Virus record (IMG/VR): IMGVR_UViG_2740892210_000013
Source: a virus
Lineage: Duplodnaviria; Heunggongvirae; Uroviricota; Caudoviricetes
DNA: 37,133 nt
Strand: one strand, 5' to 3'
Translations under genes and position numbers: made by a program
In this document: piece after piece, positions 1-28,555 of the stretch
Layout of the letters: every line of letters begins with the position of its first letter
Numbering within the stretch: position 1 is the stretch's first letter
The notes under the pieces: generated by a model
Database searches by the model: none
Told to the model about the DNA's origin: nothing
What the model saw: only the letters and a program-made list of their open reading frames with translations

Positions 1-1008
1 CTAATCGATGGACAGTTTATGGACACTTTCAGCCAGCGGATTAAAGTTGATCGCGTCCAGTAAAAAGTCCGGCGAAAAATGAGCGTACGTCATTGTTTGC
101 TGAATCGTTGCGTGCCCCAGGATTCGTTGCAACGTAACAATATTTCCGCCATTCATCATAAAGTGTGTGGCAAATGTATGACGCATGACATGCGTAGCCT
201 GCCCCTTCGGCAAATCCGGTTTCACCTCCTGAAGAATCTCCCGGAACTTCAGATAATCAACCTGATACAATAACCCCGTTCGACGGGTTTTAATCAGAGG
301 CACGACCGAATCCGCCACAGGAACCGAACGGGATTTTCCGTTTTTGGTGTTAAAGAACGTCACCCGGTTGCCAACGATATGCTCTCCACGTAGTTCCGAT
401 GCTTCACTCCATCGGGCACCAGTAGAAAGACACAGAATGGCAACACGACGCGCATCACCCTCCAGTCGCTCAAGAAGCCGTTCAATCTCATCATCAGAAA
501 GAAAGGCCATCTCTGTGTTCTGAACTTTCAGTTTTCGTATACCGCGTACAGGGTTCGCGTTGTGAAAGACCTCAGCTTCAATCAGCACCGTGAACATGGT
601 AGACAGTACGCATAAGTCACGATTAATACTGGACGGCATTAATCCGGCCTGTAATTTCTCTGACCGATATTCAAGCATAAATTTTCGCGTCATCTGACTG
701 GCGCGAGGATCTCCCATTTCACGAACAACCTTCCCTAGCCTAACCCTGTAGCTATCCCCGTAAGCCTGATTACGCCCATCAAGCATCCACCACGCATCAA
801 GCAGCTCTGATAATCGCCGCTGATCAGCTGGCTTAGCCTGCCATGGCTTGTCATGAAAGTTCTGTAACACATACTTCTCAAACTCCTGAGCCTTTGATTT
901 CAGGGCAAAGATTTTTCGAATCCGCTTTCCTTCCGCCCCCTGCGGTCTGACATCGACCTGATAACGTCCGTCTTTGAGTTGCTTAATCGACATGATTAGC
1001 CCCTCCAA
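1..1008 (-). CDS. int: P2-type tyrosine integrase (site-specific recombinase)
   Basis: 335-aa ORF; C-terminal catalytic region HVMRHTFATHF (H-x-x-R) and TMTYAHF (catalytic Tyr); sits next to the C repressor as in P2-like phages. Confidence 0.9.
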   Translation of the reverse strand: MEGLIMSIKQLKDGRYQVDVRPQGAEGKRIRKIFALKSKAQEFEKYVLQNFHDKPWQAKPADQRRLSELLDAWWMLDGRNQAYGDSYRVRLGKVVREMGDPRASQMTRKFMLEYRSEKLQAGLMPSSINRDLCVLSTMFTVLIEAEVFHNANPVRGIRKLKVQNTEMAFLSDDEIERLLERLEGDARRVAILCLSTGARWSEASELRGEHIVGNRVTFFNTKNGKSRSVPVADSVVPLIKTRRTGLLYQVDYLKFREILQEVKPDLPKGQATHVMRHTFATHFMMNGGNIVTLQRILGHATIQQTMTYAHFSPDFLLDAINFNPLAESVHKLSID

Positions 1009-1062: not shown

Positions 1063-1404
1063 TCAGCCAACATTGCGGCCTGATCGGGGTGATTTTTGGG
1101 TAATACCGATTGAAACCTGATCGCCCTCCGACTGAATAGATCCATCAAGAGAGAGAGCCGGAGCAATCTGCCCGGCGACAGGTAGCGTCTTATCTTTTAT
1201 TAGCCACAGCATGTATTTTTCAAAGCGATCGACTTGCAGAACCGCCTCAACGATTTTTGCTCTAGCGTTCTTTTGCCCCGATTCGTAATTCCTTATGGTT
1301 GCCAAAGACAACCCAGTAATATCCGCAAACTGCTTTTGTGTTAACCCTTCCGCCTTACGTATCTGACGTAACTTTTTTGCGTAGTCTATTGACAAGATAA
1401 CCAT
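1063..1404 (-). CDS. C: P2 C-type immunity repressor (HTH); ORF extends to 1458 but start at 1404 (MVILSIDY...) has a GAGAGG RBS
   Basis: HTH region LTQKQFADITGLSLATIRNYESG and the GQIAPAL motif that I recall from P2 C; divergent from the early operon. Confidence 0.7.
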   Translation of the reverse strand: MVILSIDYAKKLRQIRKAEGLTQKQFADITGLSLATIRNYESGQKNARAKIVEAVLQVDRFEKYMLWLIKDKTLPVAGQIAPALSLDGSIQSEGDQVSIGITQKSPRSGRNVG

Positions 1405-1449
1405 TTGAGTATTAACCTCTCGCACAAAGATAACCTTTTGGTTATCTTT
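1389..1449 (+). promoter_or_regulatory. Early promoter/operator region: TTGACA (1389-1394), 15-bp spacer, TATTAA (1410-1415); perfect palindrome AAAGATAACC-TTTT-GGTTATCTTT (1426-1449) plus extra half-site AAGATAACC (1394-1402)
   Basis: Read directly in the sequence between C and the first rightward ORF; the repeated half-site suggests a repressor operator. Confidence 0.45.
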
Positions 1450-1508
1450 ACAAGCCAAAACAAACCATCACAAGGCGCGACAAGCGCACCAACGCAAGAG
1501 GATAACAA

Positions 1509-2030
1509 ATGCGGGACTTCATTGCCGATAAAGAGTTATCTGACCACCAACCACTTCAGGAAAGTGACGCACTCAGCGGATCCATTGATGCCGCCAACGA
1601 CGACGAGCACGAAGAAAACAAGAAAAAGCGTTCCTACAAAAAAGGAGCGACTTTGCGGCTGGATGGTCCGATCGCCGGGCTTTGCTCTCTGGAAAAAGGC
1701 GCGGCATATATTGGGCTAACAAAATCTGCACTGCGCGTAGCCATTCATCGCGGTCAAATGCCGGGACACAAGACGCGCACAAACCCGGAAGATGAAAACT
1801 CAGACGGAGTATGGTGGTTTAACGCCAAAGAGTGGGACAAGTTGGCTGATGAGCTACCAGAGCACGAGCCCCCAGAATGGCACAACTGGAAAAGTTACTG
1901 GACGTATGACCGCCAGAAAAGGAAGTTCTCTCCAGCTAATAAAGAAGACTGCCAGACCATTAACGGTAAGCGAGTTTATACAGGCAGAAGCTCAAAACTG
2001 GACCAACTCAGAAACAACAGAGGCAACTAA
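1509..2030 (+). CDS. First early-operon protein with HTH (Cox/Apl position); 173 aa, longer than P2 Cox, true start uncertain
   Basis: AAGAGG RBS 8 nt upstream of the ATG; HTH-like segment AAYIGLTKSALRVAIHRGQMP; occupies the cox slot after C. Confidence 0.5.
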   Translation: MRDFIADKELSDHQPLQESDALSGSIDAANDDEHEENKKKRSYKKGATLRLDGPIAGLCSLEKGAAYIGLTKSALRVAIHRGQMPGHKTRTNPEDENSDGVWWFNAKEWDKLADELPEHEPPEWHNWKSYWTYDRQKRKFSPANKEDCQTINGKRVYTGRSSKLDQLRNNRGN

Positions 2031-2034
2031 TCGT

Positions 2035-2457
2035 ATGAAAACAAACACGTCAGATTTCACAATAACTATTTCAAAAAATGACCAAGCATTAATTGATAAC
2101 CTGAAATACCTTGCGGAAAAACATAATAACGGACGAATTGCAATTAATTTACGACACATCACAGGAGTAACAATTGTAACCAGTTACTGGCATCTATATC
2201 TAATCGCTAAATCAGTACTTGAAAACAAAGATTCTGTTGTCAATGGAAGAGATATAGATACTCTTCCTGCACAAATCAAACCGATAGCCTATCAATTGCG
2301 TAATCGTTTTAAAAATGAAGGTGGGATTATATTTGACTTTCCCGCAGCTGTAGCCGTGAGCTTCTCTCGGGAGGATATACTTCACTCATTTCGTTTTGCT
2401 CTATCAGGTGACGAGACATTATGGCAGCTAGAAGATGCCGGGAGCAGCCCGGCATAA
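2035..2457 (+). CDS. Hypothetical protein (140 aa) in AT-rich segment
   Basis: Internal ATG of ORF 1792..2457 immediately after the stop of the preceding gene; local AT-richness; no recognisable motif. Confidence 0.4.
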   Translation: MKTNTSDFTITISKNDQALIDNLKYLAEKHNNGRIAINLRHITGVTIVTSYWHLYLIAKSVLENKDSVVNGRDIDTLPAQIKPIAYQLRNRFKNEGGIIFDFPAAVAVSFSREDILHSFRFALSGDETLWQLEDAGSSPA

Positions 2458-2463
2458 ATCAAA

Positions 2464-2655
2464 TTAAAAATCAACCAGTTGTGTGACAGGTGGGTATTTA
2501 CGCTGAATTTTGTCAGTTACTAACGCCAGTAATATATGAATCTCTGCGTTTAATGCGTCTTTATCACCCGTCGTTTTTACCCTGGGAGGGTTAATGTTAT
2601 CCAGAGCAGCACTAAGTTCACTCAACAAATTAACAACTTTTTTATCTTCTGACAT
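2464..2655 (-). CDS. Hypothetical small protein (63 aa), convergent with the 2035..2457 gene
   Basis: ORF with AAGAGG RBS on the minus strand upstream of the ATG at 2655; AT-rich. Confidence 0.4.
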   Translation of the reverse strand: MSEDKKVVNLLSELSAALDNINPPRVKTTGDKDALNAEIHILLALVTDKIQRKYPPVTQLVDF

Positions 2656-2792
2656 GAAAACCTCTTAACAATTTAATTAAACATAAGCCAGGACCTGAAC
2701 CGGCCAGTCCAAGTCCTAGACACACAAAAAAAATACCACAAATCAATACAAGGTGACACGAGTACACCTTACCGAAGGTACAGAGTTTTAAT

Positions 2793-3143
2793 ATGAAACT
2801 ACAGCGCAATTCTTCACAGCAGCGCTTCCGCAACGGTGCGGAACGCCATGCTAACCGTTTCGCTACCAGTGCATCACGTAGCAACTCTCGCTACAGCCTG
2901 AGCGAAACACACGCAACGCCGGATGGCTACCCAGTAAAACAAATTGGTGAACACACTTGGCTGATTGAAAAAGCAGGAATCGTGGTTCACAGATGCCAGC
3001 GCAACCCATTTACCGGAAACCGCATTTTTGCACTGAGCAACGGCGACAATCAGTTCGGGCAGGATTTCACATTGTACGAAGCACTTCGCACAGTTGATCG
3101 TCTGCTTCGCGGACAAAGTTTTATTAAACAGGCTGATTTATAA
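2793..3143 (+). CDS. Hypothetical early protein (116 aa)
   Basis: ORF in the early operon orientation; no recognisable motif. Confidence 0.45.
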   Translation: MKLQRNSSQQRFRNGAERHANRFATSASRSNSRYSLSETHATPDGYPVKQIGEHTWLIEKAGIVVHRCQRNPFTGNRIFALSNGDNQFGQDFTLYEALRTVDRLLRGQSFIKQADL

Positions 3144-3686: not shown

Positions 3687-3796
3687 GTATATTTATCTCA
3701 TGGCTTGTTCTGATTATTTCGGTGGTCTGCGCCATTGGGATTATGCGAATTATTAATTCAGTGAAAAAGATCGAGCGTTTTTTCTCTGATGAATAA
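3683..3796 (+). CDS. Possible small hydrophobic membrane peptide (37 aa, MSIFISWLVLIISVVCAIGIMRIINSVKKIERFFSDE)
   Basis: ATG overlaps the upstream stop (ATGA); single predicted transmembrane helix; below the ORF-track length cutoff. Confidence 0.3.
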   Translation: MSIFISWLVLIISVVCAIGIMRIINSVKKIERFFSDE

Positions 3797-4532: not shown

Positions 4533-4795
4533 CCATTCTGGACTACATCGCTACTCATCCGGGGTGTAGCGGCGGAGAGATCGCCGCAGCACTGAATACT
4601 CCAACCACAGCCATTAATGCTGAGTTACGCCAACTTTGGCGCGGCGGCTTAGTCATCAGAACAAACCGCAGCACAGGTGGTCGCGCTCGCAAAACTGGAG
4701 GCCAGGCTTCTTACCACGTAAACCCGATGCCGTTCGGGTGTAGCAATCCACTTACTCACATGTTTAACCAGCTACTGAAGGAAGCCAGAGCATGA
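4529..4795 (+). CDS. Hypothetical early protein (88 aa)
   Basis: ORF translationally coupled to both neighbours; no recognisable motif. Confidence 0.45.
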   Translation: MTILDYIATHPGCSGGEIAAALNTPTTAINAELRQLWRGGLVIRTNRSTGGRARKTGGQASYHVNPMPFGCSNPLTHMFNQLLKEARA

Positions 4796-5091
4796 GCACC
4801 ATCAACCACCAGAAGCTACGCGAACTGGCATTTGCCCTGCAACGAATGGCAACGCCTCAAAAATTACTGGCATTTCGCGCAATGCTCTCGCCGTCTGCTG
4901 TGCTGGCATTGCTGGATGAGCTGGAGCACGCCAGAACCACGGCTCCTGCCATTCGCCTGACGCTCCATCATGAAATCGCTGATTTCTGCGCGACATTGGA
5001 GGCGCCAGGCGAACCGGAAACGCCGGAAGCAATACAGCAAGAGCTGCTGCAACGCATTGACAAGGTTTTTGATTTTTTTCTGAACCAGTAA
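4792..5091 (+). CDS. Hypothetical early protein (99 aa)
   Basis: ORF overlapping the upstream stop codon. Confidence 0.45.
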   Translation: MSTINHQKLRELAFALQRMATPQKLLAFRAMLSPSAVLALLDELEHARTTAPAIRLTLHHEIADFCATLEAPGEPETPEAIQQELLQRIDKVFDFFLNQ

Positions 5092-6088: not shown

Positions 6089-8911
6089 ATGACGGCAGAG
6101 TACATCAGGGACTGGCAACAACCGCGCCACGCAGTGGGACGTGAAGGAACGGGGATCCCCGTTCCTGAATCCGCGCTTTCCTCCTGGCTGGATGCCTACC
6201 GGGCAGAGAACGAGCGCCGCCAGGAAATGGCTGATGCGGCGTTCTCCGCCACGCCGCTGGGCAACCTGATTAATAAAAGCCTGGATGCACAGGAAAAACA
6301 GGACAAAACCATCACACTGGCAGGAGACGCCAGAAAACAGGTACGCGGTGCGGTGGATGAAGCCATGGCCTCGCTGCGCCTGCTGCCGTCCTATCTGCGC
6401 GATCCGCTTATTCGCCACCTCTCCTTCCTGCGCAAAAAACAGGAAGCCGATCGCCGGAAAGGCAAAAAGAGCTGGCAGGCTGAACGCTACGCGCGCGGAA
6501 CCCTGCGCAAAATATTCGAACGTCTGGACCGCACCGACCACCGCTGGCTGACACCGGGTTATCGCTCCCTTGCCGGACGCGAACGCCTGGATGATTTGCT
6601 TTACCTGCCGCAGCTCAACAAGCACCAGATACAGACGCTGGCCACCATGACGGCGGCGATGTTCAGCAGCACCTTCGAAAAACTCTGCGATGGCTTTGGC
6701 GCGACTGATGGCGAGCTGACCATGGATGTAACGCTGAAGGCGTATCAGATGCTGGCCCGCATGGCGTTACACCTGCACGCCATGCCTCCGCATTATGACG
6801 CACTGACAACAGACAAAGACCGGAGGAACGAACCGGACACGGAGCTGCTGCCGGGCGCAATCCTTCGCCTGACCTGTGCGGAATGGTGGAAACGCAAACT
6901 GTGGCTGTTACGTTGCGAGTGGCGGGAAGAACAACTCCGCGCCGCCTGTCTGGTTTCCAGAAAAACATCGCCCTATCTGAGCCAGGACGCGTTAAGCGAG
7001 TTTCGCGCACAGCGCGAGAAAACACGCGATTTCCTGAAAAGTTTCATGCTGGAAAACGAAGACGGGTTCACGATTGATCTCGAGACGGTGTATTACGCGG
7101 GAGTAAGTAACCCGGTTCACCGTAAGGCAGAAATGATGGCCACCATGAAGGGGCTGGAACTTCTGGCCGAAGCCCGTGGCGACAAAGCGGTGTTTCTGAC
7201 TGTCACCTGCCCGTCAAAATACCACGCCACAACAGAGAACGGTCATCCGAATCCCAAATGGAACGGGGCCACCATGCGCGACTCCAGCGATTACCTGGTT
7301 AACACGTTTTTTGCGGCGGTCCGCAAGAAACTGAACCGCGACGGCCTGCGCTGGTATGGCATCCGCACGGTGGAGCCTCACCATGACGGCACCGTGCACT
7401 GGCATATGATGGTCTTTGCTCATCCGGAAGAAATCGACACCATTGTGTCCCACACCCGCGATATTGCCATTCAGGAAGATCGTCACGAGCTGGGTGATGA
7501 TATTACCCCACGCTTTAAGGCGGAGTACGTCGACGGCTCAAAAGGCACACCGACCAGCTACATCGCCACCTACATCGGGAAAAACCTGGACAGCCGTGCC
7601 GTGGATGGCATCGACCCGAAAACGGGCAAGCCACGCGTTGACCACGAAACCGGAAAATCAATGGCCGAGAGCGTGGAACGCGCCATCGGCTGGGCGCGCC
7701 TTCACCGGGTCCGCCAGTTCCAGTTCTTTGGTATCCCCTCCCGTCAGGTGTGGCGTGAACTGCGCCGCCTTGCCAGCCAGATGGCTCGCAACCCGGAAGG
7801 ACCGCAACGGCTGAAGGATGACGCAATGGACGCGGTTCTTGCTGCCGCTGATGCCGGATGTTTTGCCACCTACATAGAGAAACAGGGCGGCGTACTTGTT
7901 CCACGCAAGGACTACCTGATTCGCACCGCCTACGACCTCGCCGATGAGCTGAACGATTACGGTGAACAGAGCGTACAGATTTACGGGATCTGGTCACCGC
8001 TCATCGGGGAGTCTTCCCGCGTATGCACGCATCCGGACAACTGGAAGCTGGTAAGACGCAAACCGGAAGCGGAAGACAGCGCCCGCGAAAATGGTTTTGA
8101 CCTTCAGGGCGGCCCTGCCGCACCTTGGACTCGTGGCAATAACTGTCCCCGTGTACAGGAAACGGACAACAACGGGACAGAACAGCCGGAAGAACGGCCA
8201 GCACCGTGGCCGCAGCTTCCTGACGGCGTTGACGTGAACGAATGGATGCGCTCACTGAAACGGCACGAACGCCGGGCGCTGATGCGTTCGCTGCGTGACA
8301 AACAGGCAAAAAACAGCAGTGATGAAATGCAGAGCTGGACACAGAGCCGCAAACAGCAGCGGCCTTTGCCTGATAACCACGAATTACTCGCTAAAGAATG
8401 GCGGGAATCTGCCGAATCTCTCGGCCTGCATATCGGTGAACAGCAGATGCAGCACCTGTTACGGGGCGGCAGCCTGTACGTTGACGGCAGCATCATTGCA
8501 CCGCAGGGATTTGAAATTGTACGCAAACCGGATACCCGCCCGGACAGCCGAATCACGCAGCTCTGGCAGCGCCTGAGCCGTAATCACGGCGTAAGCAGCA
8601 CGGAGATCCGCCATAACCCGGTCGCCAGCTATCTGGAACAGCTGGGGGCATCAGACCCCGAAGCCGCCGCACGTCTGGCATCCACACTTCAGCAGGACCA
8701 GAACACCATGAACCCCCCCGTTACCGTGCTTTCTGACATGCTGCGCGCCATCCGCGACGCAGAGCACGCACAGAGAATCAGTGAAACCACTGAACGTGCC
8801 CGCCGCAAAGCAGACCTGCTGCGGGGTGGCCTGACCAGTGGAAACAAAAAACAGACAGAAACGGGATTCACAAATCCCGTAAATGAGCAAAAAACGCGCC
8901 GCGATATATGA
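6089..8911 (+). CDS. A: P2 gpA-family replication initiation endonuclease (rolling-circle), 940 aa with a long C-terminal extension
   Basis: HWHMMVF (H-u-H-type) motif; large size and position after the early operon as in P2; longer than the P2 A size I recall. Confidence 0.8.
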   Translation: MTAEYIRDWQQPRHAVGREGTGIPVPESALSSWLDAYRAENERRQEMADAAFSATPLGNLINKSLDAQEKQDKTITLAGDARKQVRGAVDEAMASLRLLPSYLRDPLIRHLSFLRKKQEADRRKGKKSWQAERYARGTLRKIFERLDRTDHRWLTPGYRSLAGRERLDDLLYLPQLNKHQIQTLATMTAAMFSSTFEKLCDGFGATDGELTMDVTLKAYQMLARMALHLHAMPPHYDALTTDKDRRNEPDTELLPGAILRLTCAEWWKRKLWLLRCEWREEQLRAACLVSRKTSPYLSQDALSEFRAQREKTRDFLKSFMLENEDGFTIDLETVYYAGVSNPVHRKAEMMATMKGLELLAEARGDKAVFLTVTCPSKYHATTENGHPNPKWNGATMRDSSDYLVNTFFAAVRKKLNRDGLRWYGIRTVEPHHDGTVHWHMMVFAHPEEIDTIVSHTRDIAIQEDRHELGDDITPRFKAEYVDGSKGTPTSYIATYIGKNLDSRAVDGIDPKTGKPRVDHETGKSMAESVERAIGWARLHRVRQFQFFGIPSRQVWRELRRLASQMARNPEGPQRLKDDAMDAVLAAADAGCFATYIEKQGGVLVPRKDYLIRTAYDLADELNDYGEQSVQIYGIWSPLIGESSRVCTHPDNWKLVRRKPEAEDSARENGFDLQGGPAAPWTRGNNCPRVQETDNNGTEQPEERPAPWPQLPDGVDVNEWMRSLKRHERRALMRSLRDKQAKNSSDEMQSWTQSRKQQRPLPDNHELLAKEWRESAESLGLHIGEQQMQHLLRGGSLYVDGSIIAPQGFEIVRKPDTRPDSRITQLWQRLSRNHGVSSTEIRHNPVASYLEQLGASDPEAAARLASTLQQDQNTMNPPVTVLSDMLRAIRDAEHAQRISETTERARRKADLLRGGLTSGNKKQTETGFTNPVNEQKTRRDI

Positions 8912-8987: not shown

Positions 8988-9947
8988 ATGAAAATTTGTA
9001 TCGACGACGGCTCCACCAACATCAAGCTGGCATGGACTGAGAATGGCGAACGCCGCAACGCCATCAGCCCGAACAGCTTCAAGTCGGAATGGTCTGCGCC
9101 GTTCGGTGGCATGCAGCCCGCGAACTACATGCTTGATGGCGTGCGCTATGGTTTTGATCCGGTCAGCGATCGCTTTGTCCAGACGACCGACACGCAATAC
9201 CAGTACAGCGATGTGAATGTAATCGCCATTCATCACGCGCTGGTCAAATCAGGCATCACGCCACAGGAGGTGGATGTGGTTGTCACCCTGCCACTGAGCG
9301 AGTATTTCGACACAAACGCACAGCCGGACATGGCCAACATCAACCGCAAAAAAGCGAACGTTATGCGCCCGGTGGAGTACCAGAACGGCGAAGCATTCAC
9401 TATCCGTAACGTGCGGGTTATGCCTGAATCCATTCCGGCTGGCTTTAAAGCACTGGCTGACATGAGTCCGTTTGAATCCCTGCTGATTGTGGATTTAGGC
9501 GGAACCACGCTGGATGTGGCAAAGGTTCAGGGGCAACTGGCAGGTATCAGCCAGGTGTTTTGCGATCCACACGTAGGCGTCTCCCTGATGGCCGGTGCCG
9601 TGCTGTCGGTGATGGCCGCTAACGGTATGCGTACCAGTCACCACATCGCCAATACCATTATCGAACATCGCCATGATGAAGCCTGGTTGCGCCAACACAT
9701 CCACAATGACGCGCATTACGCCAGCCTGATGGCGGTTATTCGTGAAAAGGAAGAAACACTGAAACAACGCGTGATCCGCGCGCTGGCGGGTTTTTCGGGT
9801 TACGGGCGGGTGATGGTTGTCGGTGGCGGGGCGGAGATTGTGGCACCCGCTATCCGCGAAGCCTGCGGAGTTAATGCGACTTTCATCGCGGACGGGGTGC
9901 CACAGTTTGCTCTGGTTAATGGGCTGTACGCAATGGACAAGGAGTAA
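8988..9947 (+). CDS. parM: ParM/StbA-like actin-type segregation ATPase
   Basis: N-terminus MKICIDDGSTNIKLAW, ISPNSFK and QYSDVNVIAIHHALVKSG closely match what I recall of plasmid R1 ParM; 319 aa. Confidence 0.8.
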   Translation: MKICIDDGSTNIKLAWTENGERRNAISPNSFKSEWSAPFGGMQPANYMLDGVRYGFDPVSDRFVQTTDTQYQYSDVNVIAIHHALVKSGITPQEVDVVVTLPLSEYFDTNAQPDMANINRKKANVMRPVEYQNGEAFTIRNVRVMPESIPAGFKALADMSPFESLLIVDLGGTTLDVAKVQGQLAGISQVFCDPHVGVSLMAGAVLSVMAANGMRTSHHIANTIIEHRHDEAWLRQHIHNDAHYASLMAVIREKEETLKQRVIRALAGFSGYGRVMVVGGGAEIVAPAIREACGVNATFIADGVPQFALVNGLYAMDKE

Positions 9948-10285: not shown

Positions 10286-10747
10286 ATGGCAACTATCCCC
10301 AAAAAATGGTTACAACGCAAAATTGCAGACCTTGAATCGTGTCGTGAAGACATCCCGTTTGGCCTTGATGAAAACGATCACAATATGTTAATCGCACTGA
10401 AAATCGCACTCACATCGCTGGAAGCAGAGGCAGTTATGTTCTGTATATCAGGACAAAATGTAGATTCAGAAGAACATGTATCAACCAGCAAAGCGGTTGT
10501 TGATGCCTGGGTTGAAGAATGGAATCAGGTTGACGGAAGTCCTGGCGAACCACTGTACAAAACTATGCCACTCTACTATCACGCTGCCTTGCCAGCGCCG
10601 GTAGTGCCGGAAGAAGCAACTCCGGAAAACGTAGAAATGCTCTCTGGCTATGTTTCCACATACAAATTAACCGATAGCGAGCGCGATATTGCTGCCGAAA
10701 TATGGAACGCCTGCCGCGCCGCTATGCTTCATGGGAAAGGAGAGTGA
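10286..10747 (+). CDS. Hypothetical, strongly acidic protein (153 aa)
   Basis: ORF with GGAG RBS; high Asp/Glu content; same operon as parMR. Confidence 0.5.
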   Translation: MATIPKKWLQRKIADLESCREDIPFGLDENDHNMLIALKIALTSLEAEAVMFCISGQNVDSEEHVSTSKAVVDAWVEEWNQVDGSPGEPLYKTMPLYYHAALPAPVVPEEATPENVEMLSGYVSTYKLTDSERDIAAEIWNACRAAMLHGKGE

Positions 10748-26710: not shown

Positions 26711-27288
26711 TGGCATTCAGAATGAGTGAACAATCACGGACCATAAAAATTTATAATCTACTGACCGGAACCAATGAGTTTATTGGTGAAGGTGATGCAT
26801 ACATTCCACCTCATACAGGTCTGCCAGCAAACAGTACCGATATTGCCCCGCCAGATATTCCGGCTGGCTTCGTGGCCGTTTTCAACAGTGATGAGGCATC
26901 GTGGCATCTCGTTGAAGACCATCGGGGTAAAACGGTTTATGACGTGGCATCAGGGGACTCGTTATTTATTTCTGAACTCGGTCCATTACCGGAAAATGTT
27001 ACCTGGTTGTCGCCGTATGGAGAGTATCAGAAGTGGAACGGCACATCCTGGGGGAAAGATGCAGAAGCAGAAAAACTGTTTCGGATAAGGGAGGCGGAAG
27101 AAACAAAAAACAGCCTGATGCAGGTAGCCAGTGAGCATATTGCACCACTTCAGGATGCTATAGATTTAGATATTGCGACGGAGGAAGAGACATCGTTACT
27201 GGCTGCATGGAAGACATATCGAGTATTGTTGCATCGTGTTGATACAACAGTAGCAGCAGATATTGAGTGGCCAGTCGCCCCACAATAA
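26710..27288 (+). CDS. G: Tail fiber assembly chaperone gpG (Tfa)
   Basis: 192 aa directly after H with overlapping stop/start; Tfa-like size and position. Confidence 0.8.
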
Positions 27289-27297
27289 AAAGAAAAA

Positions 27298-27321
27298 GCC
27301 ATCGATAGAAATATCGATGGC
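27298..27321. terminator. Bidirectional stem-loop (GCCATCGATA-GAAA-TATCGATGGC) between G and the convergent acetyltransferase gene
   Basis: Perfect 10-bp inverted repeat followed by TTTATG; preceded by an A-run on the other strand. Confidence 0.55.
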
Positions 27322-27331
27322 TTTATGTACT

Positions 27332-27937
27332 CTATTTATACAATACAGCACCGCTCTTTTTAGTTATATATGTGCAGTTCGATGGTATATCTTTATTTAT
27401 AAAAGACATTGCACCTATTTTTACATTATCCCCAATTTTACGGGATAATCCAATGATGCAACAATTAGCTCCGATATCAACGTTGCTACCAATTTTTACT
27501 CTTGAACCAGGTATGTCACCATCTATCTGTCCAATGGTCGTATTCTGTCGTAACACCAGATTTTCACCAGCATCAACAGCAAAATGAACAACAATTCCAG
27601 CATGATGGGGAATTGTTAACCCTTTTCCAATATTTGCGCCCAATCCAATTTCGCAACCAAATTTGTTAATTATTTTACTGTTTAACTTCTTGGCTGCTTT
27701 CTTATGTAATTTATTACCATTAATATACATTTCGTTAGCCAACCGCCACCAGAAAAGGAAATTCCTGTTACGCTGCTTTTTCTCTCTTAAAAGCCTCCAG
27801 ATATCCATACGTTTCCGCCGAATTACTTCATGTTTCCAGAAGTTTTTTAAATTAGTAGAGTTCCCAAATAAAACAAAGTGAATTGCCATTAGGTAAGACA
27901 GCACGATAATCTCCTTAATTATTATTTCAGACCACAC
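27332..27937 (-). CDS. Hexapeptide-repeat (left-handed beta-helix) O-acetyltransferase, CysE/WcaB/NeuO-like; AT-rich cargo gene
   Basis: 201 aa; hexapeptide-like repeats GLGANIGKGLTIPHHAGIVV...IGSNVDIGANCCIIG...IGDNVKIGAMSFI; much lower GC than flanking phage genes. Confidence 0.7.
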   Translation of the reverse strand: MWSEIIIKEIIVLSYLMAIHFVLFGNSTNLKNFWKHEVIRRKRMDIWRLLREKKQRNRNFLFWWRLANEMYINGNKLHKKAAKKLNSKIINKFGCEIGLGANIGKGLTIPHHAGIVVHFAVDAGENLVLRQNTTIGQIDGDIPGSRVKIGSNVDIGANCCIIGLSRKIGDNVKIGAMSFINKDIPSNCTYITKKSGAVLYK

Positions 27938-27955
27938 ATGTTATAAGGTTAAGAG

Positions 27956-27984
27956 ATTATAAAATCCTGTTGTTTATTATTCAA
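27956..27984 (-). promoter_or_regulatory. Sigma70-like promoter for the acetyltransferase gene (TTGAAT, 17-bp spacer, TATAAT on the minus strand)
   Basis: Read directly; the -10 hexamer lies ~20 nt upstream of the ATG. Confidence 0.45.
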
Positions 27985-28060
27985 AAACAATTTTCTGAGA
28001 AGGACATACAACAGCAAGTCGCCAGTCACCTTCATCAGGAAATTGGCGACATACGTTAAA

Positions 28061-28555
28061 TCAGAGCAGCCCCTTAACTGAGCTGGCCGCGCTATTAAGG
28101 GATGATGTCACCTTATCTTTGAAGCCGGACAACATATCGCTGAACGATGAGGATTGCAGGCGCTCCCGCAAATCCTCATCACAGCGTTCAAGAGTCAGTG
28201 AAAATTCTATCTTTTTCGCCTTACCGTAGCGATCAAACTCGGAACGGGTCGTATTCGTTTCAGTCAGTACATACATGCCGTAAATCTGCCCGACACCATC
28301 AATCAGAGGCCAGGGCCGTCCTGTATATGCCTGCGTGGTCAGCAATGAAAGCGACACTTCGCCACCTGTAATTTCAGGATAAAGCACGCCGGAAAGCACA
28401 ATGCGATCATCACCTGCACCGATATACTGCCAGCTTGCTGAACGGTTAACGCGTTCATTTTTCACATGCCGCCAGCTTTTGTTTTGCTGTAACTGCTGAT
28501 GCGGCAATGTGCGCAGCTCAAAAACAAACATGCCGTAGATCATCATCATGACCAT
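28061..28555 (-). CDS. U: Tail protein gpU
   Basis: 164 aa; FVFELRTLP...YPEITGG...PWPLIDGVGQIYGMYV resembles P2 U. Confidence 0.8.
   Translation of the reverse strand: MVMMMIYGMFVFELRTLPHQQLQQNKSWRHVKNERVNRSASWQYIGAGDDRIVLSGVLYPEITGGEVSLSLLTTQAYTGRPWPLIDGVGQIYGMYVLTETNTTRSEFDRYGKAKKIEFSLTLERCDEDLRERLQSSSFSDMLSGFKDKVTSSLNSAASSVKGLL

Follow-up and report, generated by a model that had tools for sequence, protein, structure and literature searches.

Analysis of a 37,133-nucleotide (nt) stretch of DNA (the window), which holds a complete P2-family prophage of Escherichia coli of the P88 type (genus Xuanwuvirus), identified positions 2031 to 2775 as an accessory, moron-type cassette (745 bp; GC content, 38.3%) by comparison with related prophages. 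The cassette occupies a variable slot, with cox to its left and the first conserved early gene to its right, and carries two convergent open reading frames (ORFs), ORF140 and ORF63, which on comparative sequence evidence are genuine genes; each belongs to a very small family that has no annotation and is confined to P2-like prophages of E. coli and Salmonella. In general type the element is familiar, being a moron at a variable site, but its protein families are new. The explanation that we favor, with moderate confidence, is that the two genes form one accessory block, that their expression is split by life cycle phase, and that ORF63 has a role in prophage fitness or competition.

The left end of the prophage is occupied by an integrase gene (positions 1 to 1008, minus strand), followed by the gene for an HTH repressor, C (1063 to 1458, minus strand), and by cox (1509 to 2030, plus strand), which is the left neighbor of the cassette and the final gene before it. 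The product of cox (173 amino acids [aa]) matched Pfam Phage_Cox (E = 1.9e-7) and phrog_23196 (1e-116), and the TAA at 2028 to 2030 is the native stop of the gene. The right neighbor, and the first conserved early gene past the slot, is the DUF4761 gene (2793 to 3143, plus strand; Pfam DUF4761, 8.5e-69); it is followed by DUF4754 among the conserved early genes, and the replication gene lies at 6089 to 8911. The window is 99.6 to 100% identical to a prophage adjoining dmsA in E. coli ST131 up to approximately position 3700. A mosaic breakpoint lies between 3700 and 5100, where identity to the ST131 prophage drops to 76% and then to 46%, and the early region to the right of approximately 3700 is, as judged from this alignment, exchanged. 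A perfect palindrome, AAAGATAACC-TTTT-GGTTATCTTT, was observed at 1426 to 1449 in the interval from the repressor gene to cox, with an extra AAGATAACC half-site nearby at 1394 (within 1393 to 1449); the palindrome probably serves the HTH repressor as its operator at the Pe/Pc switch.

ORF140 (140 codons; 2035 to 2457) runs on the plus strand from an ATG at 2035 to a TAA at 2455 to 2457, and ORF63 (63 codons; 2464 to 2655) runs on the minus strand from an ATG at 2655 to a stop at 2464 to 2466. The original prediction had described a convergent pair encoding 140 and 63 aa, an AAGAGG ribosome-binding site for the minus-strand ORF, and a 137-bp gap after the pair, in a locally AT-rich segment, and each of these features was recovered. 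The stops of the two convergent genes are separated by 6 bp, the Shine-Dalgarno sequence AAGAGG, read from the sequence, lies at 2666 to 2661 (minus strand), 5 nt ahead of the ATG, and the coordinates place 137 bp between the ORF63 start and the DUF4761 ATG (2793, plus strand). The GC content of the segment is approximately 38% (ORF140, 38.3%; ORF63, 37.5%; gap, 38.7%) versus 50% for cox, 49% for the DUF4761 gene, and 52.8% for the whole window, and just 1.2% of 745-nt windows across the 37 kb are equally AT-rich. GC skew showed nothing special.

The limits of the cassette were set from a comparison of UTI89, which carries it, with ETEC1734, which carries other cargo. These two prophages have identical integrase and repressor alleles and left flanks that are 97.8% identical; their homology stops directly after the cox stop and returns 17 nt ahead of the DUF4761 ATG, so that most of the 137-bp gap is part of the cassette. 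Similarity to phages P88, Shae_phiSM, and Chuche begins at 2776 to 2786, in agreement with the right limit. The presence of alternative cargo in the same int/C background, the empty slots of other relatives, and the low GC content uphold the view that the pair is acquired cargo, and the two ORFs are not core early genes with normal GC content. The cassette had also been described as interrupting the early operon, which is inaccurate: it sits between genes and breaks none, and Cox is 173 aa long with either cargo (in the window, UTI89, and ETEC1734), the 173-aa form ending in GN and the stop codon being present also in ETEC1734, whose cargo differs. Neither target-site duplications nor terminal inverted repeats of a mobile element were found at the cassette.

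A natural deletion was found in E. coli PRO_A-1504-6M-A, the only E. coli genome without the pair on this cox allele (1 of 5,426). The deletion removes 688 bp (2028 to 2715 in window coordinates, with 1-nt microhomology), taking both ORFs and the cox TAA, so that Cox is 185 aa long in that strain. The pair is therefore dispensable for prophage maintenance. The alternative order of events, in which insertion of the cassette truncated cox from 185 to 173 aa, was considered and rejected, since the "empty" junction occurs in that single genome and since ETEC1734, with other cargo, has a 173-aa Cox with the TAA at the same codon; because ETEC1734 and UTI89 both retain the cox TAA, the deletion is regarded as secondary.

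The slot was inspected in twelve relatives. It was empty in five (P88, O104:H4, two O157:H7 prophages, and the PRO_A-1504 deletion variant), held a gene for a 68-aa membrane protein in six (Shae_phiSM, Chuche, P884B11, ETEC1734, E89, and M11), and contained an unannotated gap in one, phage 520873. Among 5,426 complete E. coli genomes, the backbone gene (DUF4761) was present in 1,380, the pair in 272, and the 68-aa cargo in 95. The interval between cox and DUF4761 was seen in three states in E. coli (empty, the 68-aa membrane protein, or the pair), with alternative cargo that is unrelated. In 271 of the 272 carrier genomes the cassette was at least 99% identical, and both ORFs were annotated in every one of the records listed.

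The 68-aa alternative cargo has two hydrophobic helices (MTSNIISAILNLVFLEVGVIAIYLL...) and is encoded at 2636 to 2842 in locus L017, at 2025 to 2231 in L004, and also in L018, L019, L035, and L036; it was found in several Xuanwuvirus phages as well as in the 95 E. coli genomes, and no family match was found for it. In the two O157:H7-type prophages (L038 and L039), in which the slot is empty, extra genes encoding a DUF2511 protein and a 216-aa hypothetical protein lie at 182 to 1209, between the integrase and repressor genes, and this interval is a separate cargo site.

Word-indexed searches with the two proteins returned only near-identical E. coli copies, and no functional annotation was found anywhere, as would be expected of spurious ORFs or of decaying remnants in AT-rich junk. 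Such an origin has been largely refuted and is considered extremely improbable, given the purifying selection on the small gene, the persistence of protein conservation beyond the range in which the DNA can be aligned, and the near identity of the cassette across carrier genomes that have both ORFs annotated. The chance of a 140-codon ORF is near 7e-5 per start (approximately 0.066 stops per codon at the local composition); a 63-codon ORF is not significant against chance by length alone, and ORF63 is taken as real because it has homologues at approximately 40% identity and because dN/dS of the small gene is 0.15 to 0.21. For the large gene, only one pair could be compared, and its dN/dS was 0.51.

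When 1.84 billion representatives were scanned exhaustively with phmmer, ORF140 yielded two distant relatives, and a profile search extended the ORF140 family to 19 proteins, of which all with a source name come from Salmonella enterica or E. coli and none contains a Pfam domain. The ORF140 homologues (131 to 147 aa; 20 to 36% identity), found in Salmonella and in IMG/VR P2-like prophages, always follow cox, and the contigs that carry them, all P2-like prophages, represent six or more distinct integrases and integration sites. No relatives were found in species-representative genomes; the only matches in the phage database were three E. coli records that have the same cassette, metagenomes contained the E. 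coli allele only, and a literature search under the protein accessions returned nothing.

The original prediction treated the two genes as linked, and the wider comparison agrees, with the convergent pair recurring in at least six other P2-like prophage backgrounds at 20 to 40% protein identity. A convergent ORF of 60 to 63 aa follows the large gene in seven of nine distinct backgrounds (the window's own counted), with stops that overlap by 4 nt or lie 4 to 6 nt apart. The small ORFs belong to a single family, characterized by the motif MNEDEKVI.LL...AL...KYP, the homologues being 60 to 62 aa long and 24 to 41% identical to ORF63. All 18 loci retrieved through the small gene have the large gene adjoining it, and the large gene occurs without the small gene in two arrangements: in L007, a 17-nt remnant of the small gene persists, and in L008, a different convergent gene (168 aa) replaces it. 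This asymmetry, in which the large gene may stand alone and the small gene never does, is weak evidence that the small gene relies on the large gene.

Two unrelated accessory genes could also travel together through physical interlock only, with no functional partnership, which we regard as possible though somewhat unlikely. The stops abut, and the small-gene terminator appears to fall within the final coding portion of the large gene; an identical small-gene allele (ORF60) adjoins large genes that are just 52% identical to each other (L009 versus L015), the hairpin-bearing C-terminal tail being conserved; and the large gene persists without the small gene in L007 and L008. Mere interlock is harder to reconcile with the retention of the pair at 20 to 40% protein identity through many backbone exchanges, with the small gene being found alone in none of the 18 loci, and with the correlated divergences of the two genes (r = 0.84, for pairs that are not independent).

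The layout of ORF63 resembles that of a complete leftward unit. On the minus strand, a putative extended −10 element for ORF63, TGGTATTTT (2730 to 2738), matches the motif TGnTAnnnT and has a predicted start near 2723; it is followed by a 14-bp stem-loop (2688 to 2719), proposed to form the 5' end of the ORF63 mRNA and stable, by virtue of G-U pairs, in minus-strand RNA only. The 145-nt minus-strand leader with the stem-loop folds at −37.8 kcal/mol (z = −3.3), and a 51-nt plus-strand segment across the stem folds at −7.8 kcal/mol (z = −0.9). Exactly one TGnTAnnnT motif lies upstream of the small gene in nine of nine loci, 66 to 74 nt from the ATG, and in all nine the motif is followed directly by a stable hairpin and then by the ribosome-binding site. 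The motif and hairpin layout spans three upstream sequence groups without obvious mutual similarity. A consensus promoter scan found no promoter for ORF63, TGGTATTTT included, and the promoter, read from a short motif only, is putative. The A-run at 2726 to 2733, between the putative −10 element and the stem-loop, was A8 in the window and ST131 and A6 in UTI89 and the deletion strain; its length, at the presumed transcript start, could alter ORF63 expression.

Downstream of ORF63, a GC-rich 8-bp hairpin (2435 to 2455, minus strand; −15 kcal/mol) within the ORF140 3' end is proposed as the terminator. A GC-rich hairpin was found downstream of the small-gene stop, within the 3' coding end of the large gene, in every locus. 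In the Salmonella locus L015 it is followed by TTTTTCTTT and was called terminator-like by the scan; the hairpin in the window has a weak tail, AUCUUCU, with a poor U-tract, and on the plus strand all of these hairpins lack a U-tract. ORF63 would therewith constitute an autonomous leftward transcription unit of approximately 290 nt. The gap beside ORF63 had been called promoter-like; the likely promoter in it is leftward, belonging with a 5' stem-loop to ORF63, and not rightward.

ORF140 has no signals of its own. Because it starts 4 nt past the cox stop, it would be read with cox from the early promoter, and without a promoter of its own it would be made only when Pe fires, on infection or induction. 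The ORF63 unit would lie antisense within the early operon, in the order −10 element, stem-loop, AAGAGG, ORF, and hairpin in the ORF140 3' end, and since this leftward unit appears self-contained, ORF63 is probably expressed in the lysogen, while Pe is repressed. During lytic growth, firing of Pe would silence ORF63, both through head-on transcription and through the early mRNA, which is antisense to it, and early transcription would be expected to read through the hairpins to the replication genes because these lack U-tracts on the plus strand. We infer that ORF63 most likely has a dispensable role in the fitness or competitiveness of the prophage state and that ORF140 acts as its lytic-phase partner or counterpart.

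The same position in the operon could accommodate a lysis-lysogeny module that acts through convergent transcription, with the leftward ORF63 promoter hindering the early operon past cox in the style of 186 CII/pE. In 186, cII directly follows apl/cox and a leftward promoter lies there, and linkage of the cassette to cox is tight with either of two repressor alleles. ORF140 was considered as a 186 CII relative and rejected: the family is unrelated to 186 CII (hhalign probability, 0.1%) and matched no HTH family. The leftward unit, moreover, seems to end approximately 30 nt past ORF63, short of C or int, most relatives function without any cassette, and a search for a copy of the repressor operator near the ORF63 promoter found only a chance-level 7-mer. 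A regulatory module of this type is accordingly judged very unlikely.

The AlphaFold single-sequence model of ORF63 (pLDDT, 69) contains helices at residues 3 to 21 and 31 to 53, and the protein (pI 5.6; GRAVY, −0.16) is predicted to be small and soluble with a two-helix hairpin; the corresponding model of ORF140 (pLDDT, 37) was unusable. Foldseek comparison of the ORF63 model with PDB and BFVD found no significant neighbor. Searches of both proteins and of the family alignments against Pfam, NCBIfam, PADLOC, and PDB sequences gave no match, nor did the PADLOC-DB v2 defense models at E values up to 1, and no Rfam family matched the cassette region. The sole recurring PHROGs match was weak, to phrog_6479, which has no assigned function (E = 5.6e-4; 5 of 15 members), and a match to DUF1408 was set aside (E = 0.02, below threshold, in one member only). 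The profile and structure searches, all negative, agree with the earlier statement that neither protein was recognizable; the exclusion or regulatory function proposed with it received no support, there being no family, defense-model, or structure match.

The proposed division of expression by phase would also suit a toxin/immunity-like pair, or a defense gene with self-immunity, in which the product made in the lysogen blocks phages or is harmful and the early product from Pe neutralizes it, or with these roles reversed. The slot falls within the integrase-primase interval, reported to be a minor defense hotspot of P2-like phages (PMC13586616), the occurrence of orphan large genes and of no orphan small genes would make the small gene the component that needs a partner, and other convergent pairs adjoin the cassette in Salmonella. 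This reading is nonetheless doubtful and, in our judgment, quite improbable: no PADLOC, Pfam, or PDB match was obtained, a convergent pair that forms no operon misfits type II systems, ORF63 is not hydrophobic as a type I toxin would be, and allele-specific covariation of the two genes is weak.

The Salmonella post-cox slot holds richer gene arrays than that of E. coli, and the cassette versions there have a GC content of 40 to 42% versus 49%. One or two hydrophobic peptides of approximately 37 to 40 aa (e.g., MYNLKSLFIDIIAVIAIACLGMVLIAATVKFIASYIF), which are unannotated and absent from the E. coli cassette, are encoded between cox and the ORF140 homologue in L010 (4118 to 4244) and L011 (4738 to 5000) and at the equivalent sites of L013 and L015. 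In L033, a 131-aa protein is encoded between the long Cox and the pair (4685 to 5080, minus strand); it shows a weak likeness to the N terminus of gpO, the P2 capsid scaffold protease (Pfam Phage_GPO, E = 0.008, below threshold), and its own N terminus, on visual inspection only, looks like those of several further proteins encoded after cox. More convergent pairs with 3' overlaps adjoin the ORF140/ORF63-type pair in L005 (6766 to 7804), L010 (5001 to 5937), L013 (6389 to 7006), and L008 (6001 to 7237). In a recurring one, a plus-strand gene whose product has the C-terminal pattern ...IRVISSFIPA...GRIIAV.G.SPNCR... overlaps by 53 nt a convergent gene for a 103-aa protein; in L010, the IRVISSFIPA domain is fused to an ORF140-like N terminus.

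A more far-reaching version of the favored explanation, which we offer as speculation and consider unlikely, is that the pair represents a two-protein system of a new type, partitioned by phase, in P2-family prophages. The small soluble protein would be made exclusively in the lysogen, from its antisense-embedded unit, and would target incoming phages, satellites, or some host process. The product of the early operon would inactivate or oppose it at the onset of lytic growth of the prophage itself, and the neighboring convergent pairs of Salmonella, such as the IRVISSFIPA-domain protein with its 103-aa partner, would belong to the same class.

The cassette is carried by approximately 5% of complete E. 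coli genomes, mostly those of pandemic ST131, and other carriers include UTI89 and isolates from livestock, a cat, and a dolphin. Its anatomy suggests that one gene is expressed during dormancy of the prophage and its partner during lytic growth. If functional, the two genes would be a compact new entry, as a protein pair, among the competition or regulation functions that prophages encode and would flag the post-cox slot of P2-family phages as a site for searches; if they are not a functional pair, the cassette would be an ordinary moron.

Compared with known systems, the cassette lacks defining features of type I and type II toxin-antitoxin systems, of known defense systems, and of the 186 CII/pE module. 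Type II toxin-antitoxin genes differ from the pair in forming one operon, and no toxin or antitoxin fold was matched in Pfam, NCBIfam, PADLOC, or PDB. With respect to type I systems, ORF63, with its pI, GRAVY value, and predicted solubility, is not a small hydrophobic membrane toxin; the early mRNA would by geometry be antisense to the ORF63 mRNA, with no match in Rfam. The 186 apl-cII-pE region is similar in having a gene directly after a cox/apl homologue and a leftward promoter (putative in the cassette) within the rightward early operon. It differs in that the cassette is without CII homology and in that the leftward transcript encodes its own protein and seems to stop before cox, C, and int. 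The 186 CII/pE transcript runs leftward into repressor and integrase; in all of the present loci a hairpin or putative terminator directly follows the small gene.

The self-immunity of BstA is provided by a DNA element and not by a protein. The BstA/aba system of prophage defense with cognate self-immunity (bioRxiv 10.1101/2020.07.13.199331) offers a conceptual analogy only, that of a prophage-state function neutralized by the phage's own lytic program, and no homology between it and the cassette was found. The main cargo hotspots of P2-like phages are the gpA-gpQ old/tin locus and the tail-gene locus (PMC9122126), and the integrase-primase interval was a minor hotspot with 8% of P2 defense systems in a 2026 survey (PMC13586616). 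The cassette slot resembles these hotspots in being a small site with alternative cargo between two conserved genes, within the integrase-primase interval, in both E. coli and Salmonella. It differs in lying outside the two main hotspots, in holding cargo that fits no known defense model, and in having only the three E. coli states, that is, low turnover.

At the main hotspots of the window itself, the gpA-gpQ locus was found to contain a gene for a ParM/StbA-type actin-like ATPase (8988 to 9947, plus strand; StbA_N, 2.7e-82; ParM_N, 1.6e-67) and a 153-aa ORF (10286 to 10747, plus strand) without a family match. The second and lowest GC trough of the window (26875 to 28416; minimum, 34%), past the tail-fiber assembly gene, holds a minus-strand 201-aa ORF with a weak hexapeptide-transferase match and is probably cargo in the tail-gene hotspot.

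Phage morons, a concept that arose from lambdoid phages, are autonomous promoter-gene-terminator units located between conserved genes of related phages. The cassette departs from this scheme in having two genes, of which only ORF63 has moron anatomy, in the antisense orientation of the ORF63 unit within an operon of early lytic genes, the proposed terminator of that unit being embedded in the coding sequence of the partner, and in that its expression in the prophage is a prediction from the DNA sequence. It conforms to the scheme in being present or absent between syntenic relatives, AT-rich, and dispensable, and in that ORF63 is equipped with a putative promoter and a putative terminator.
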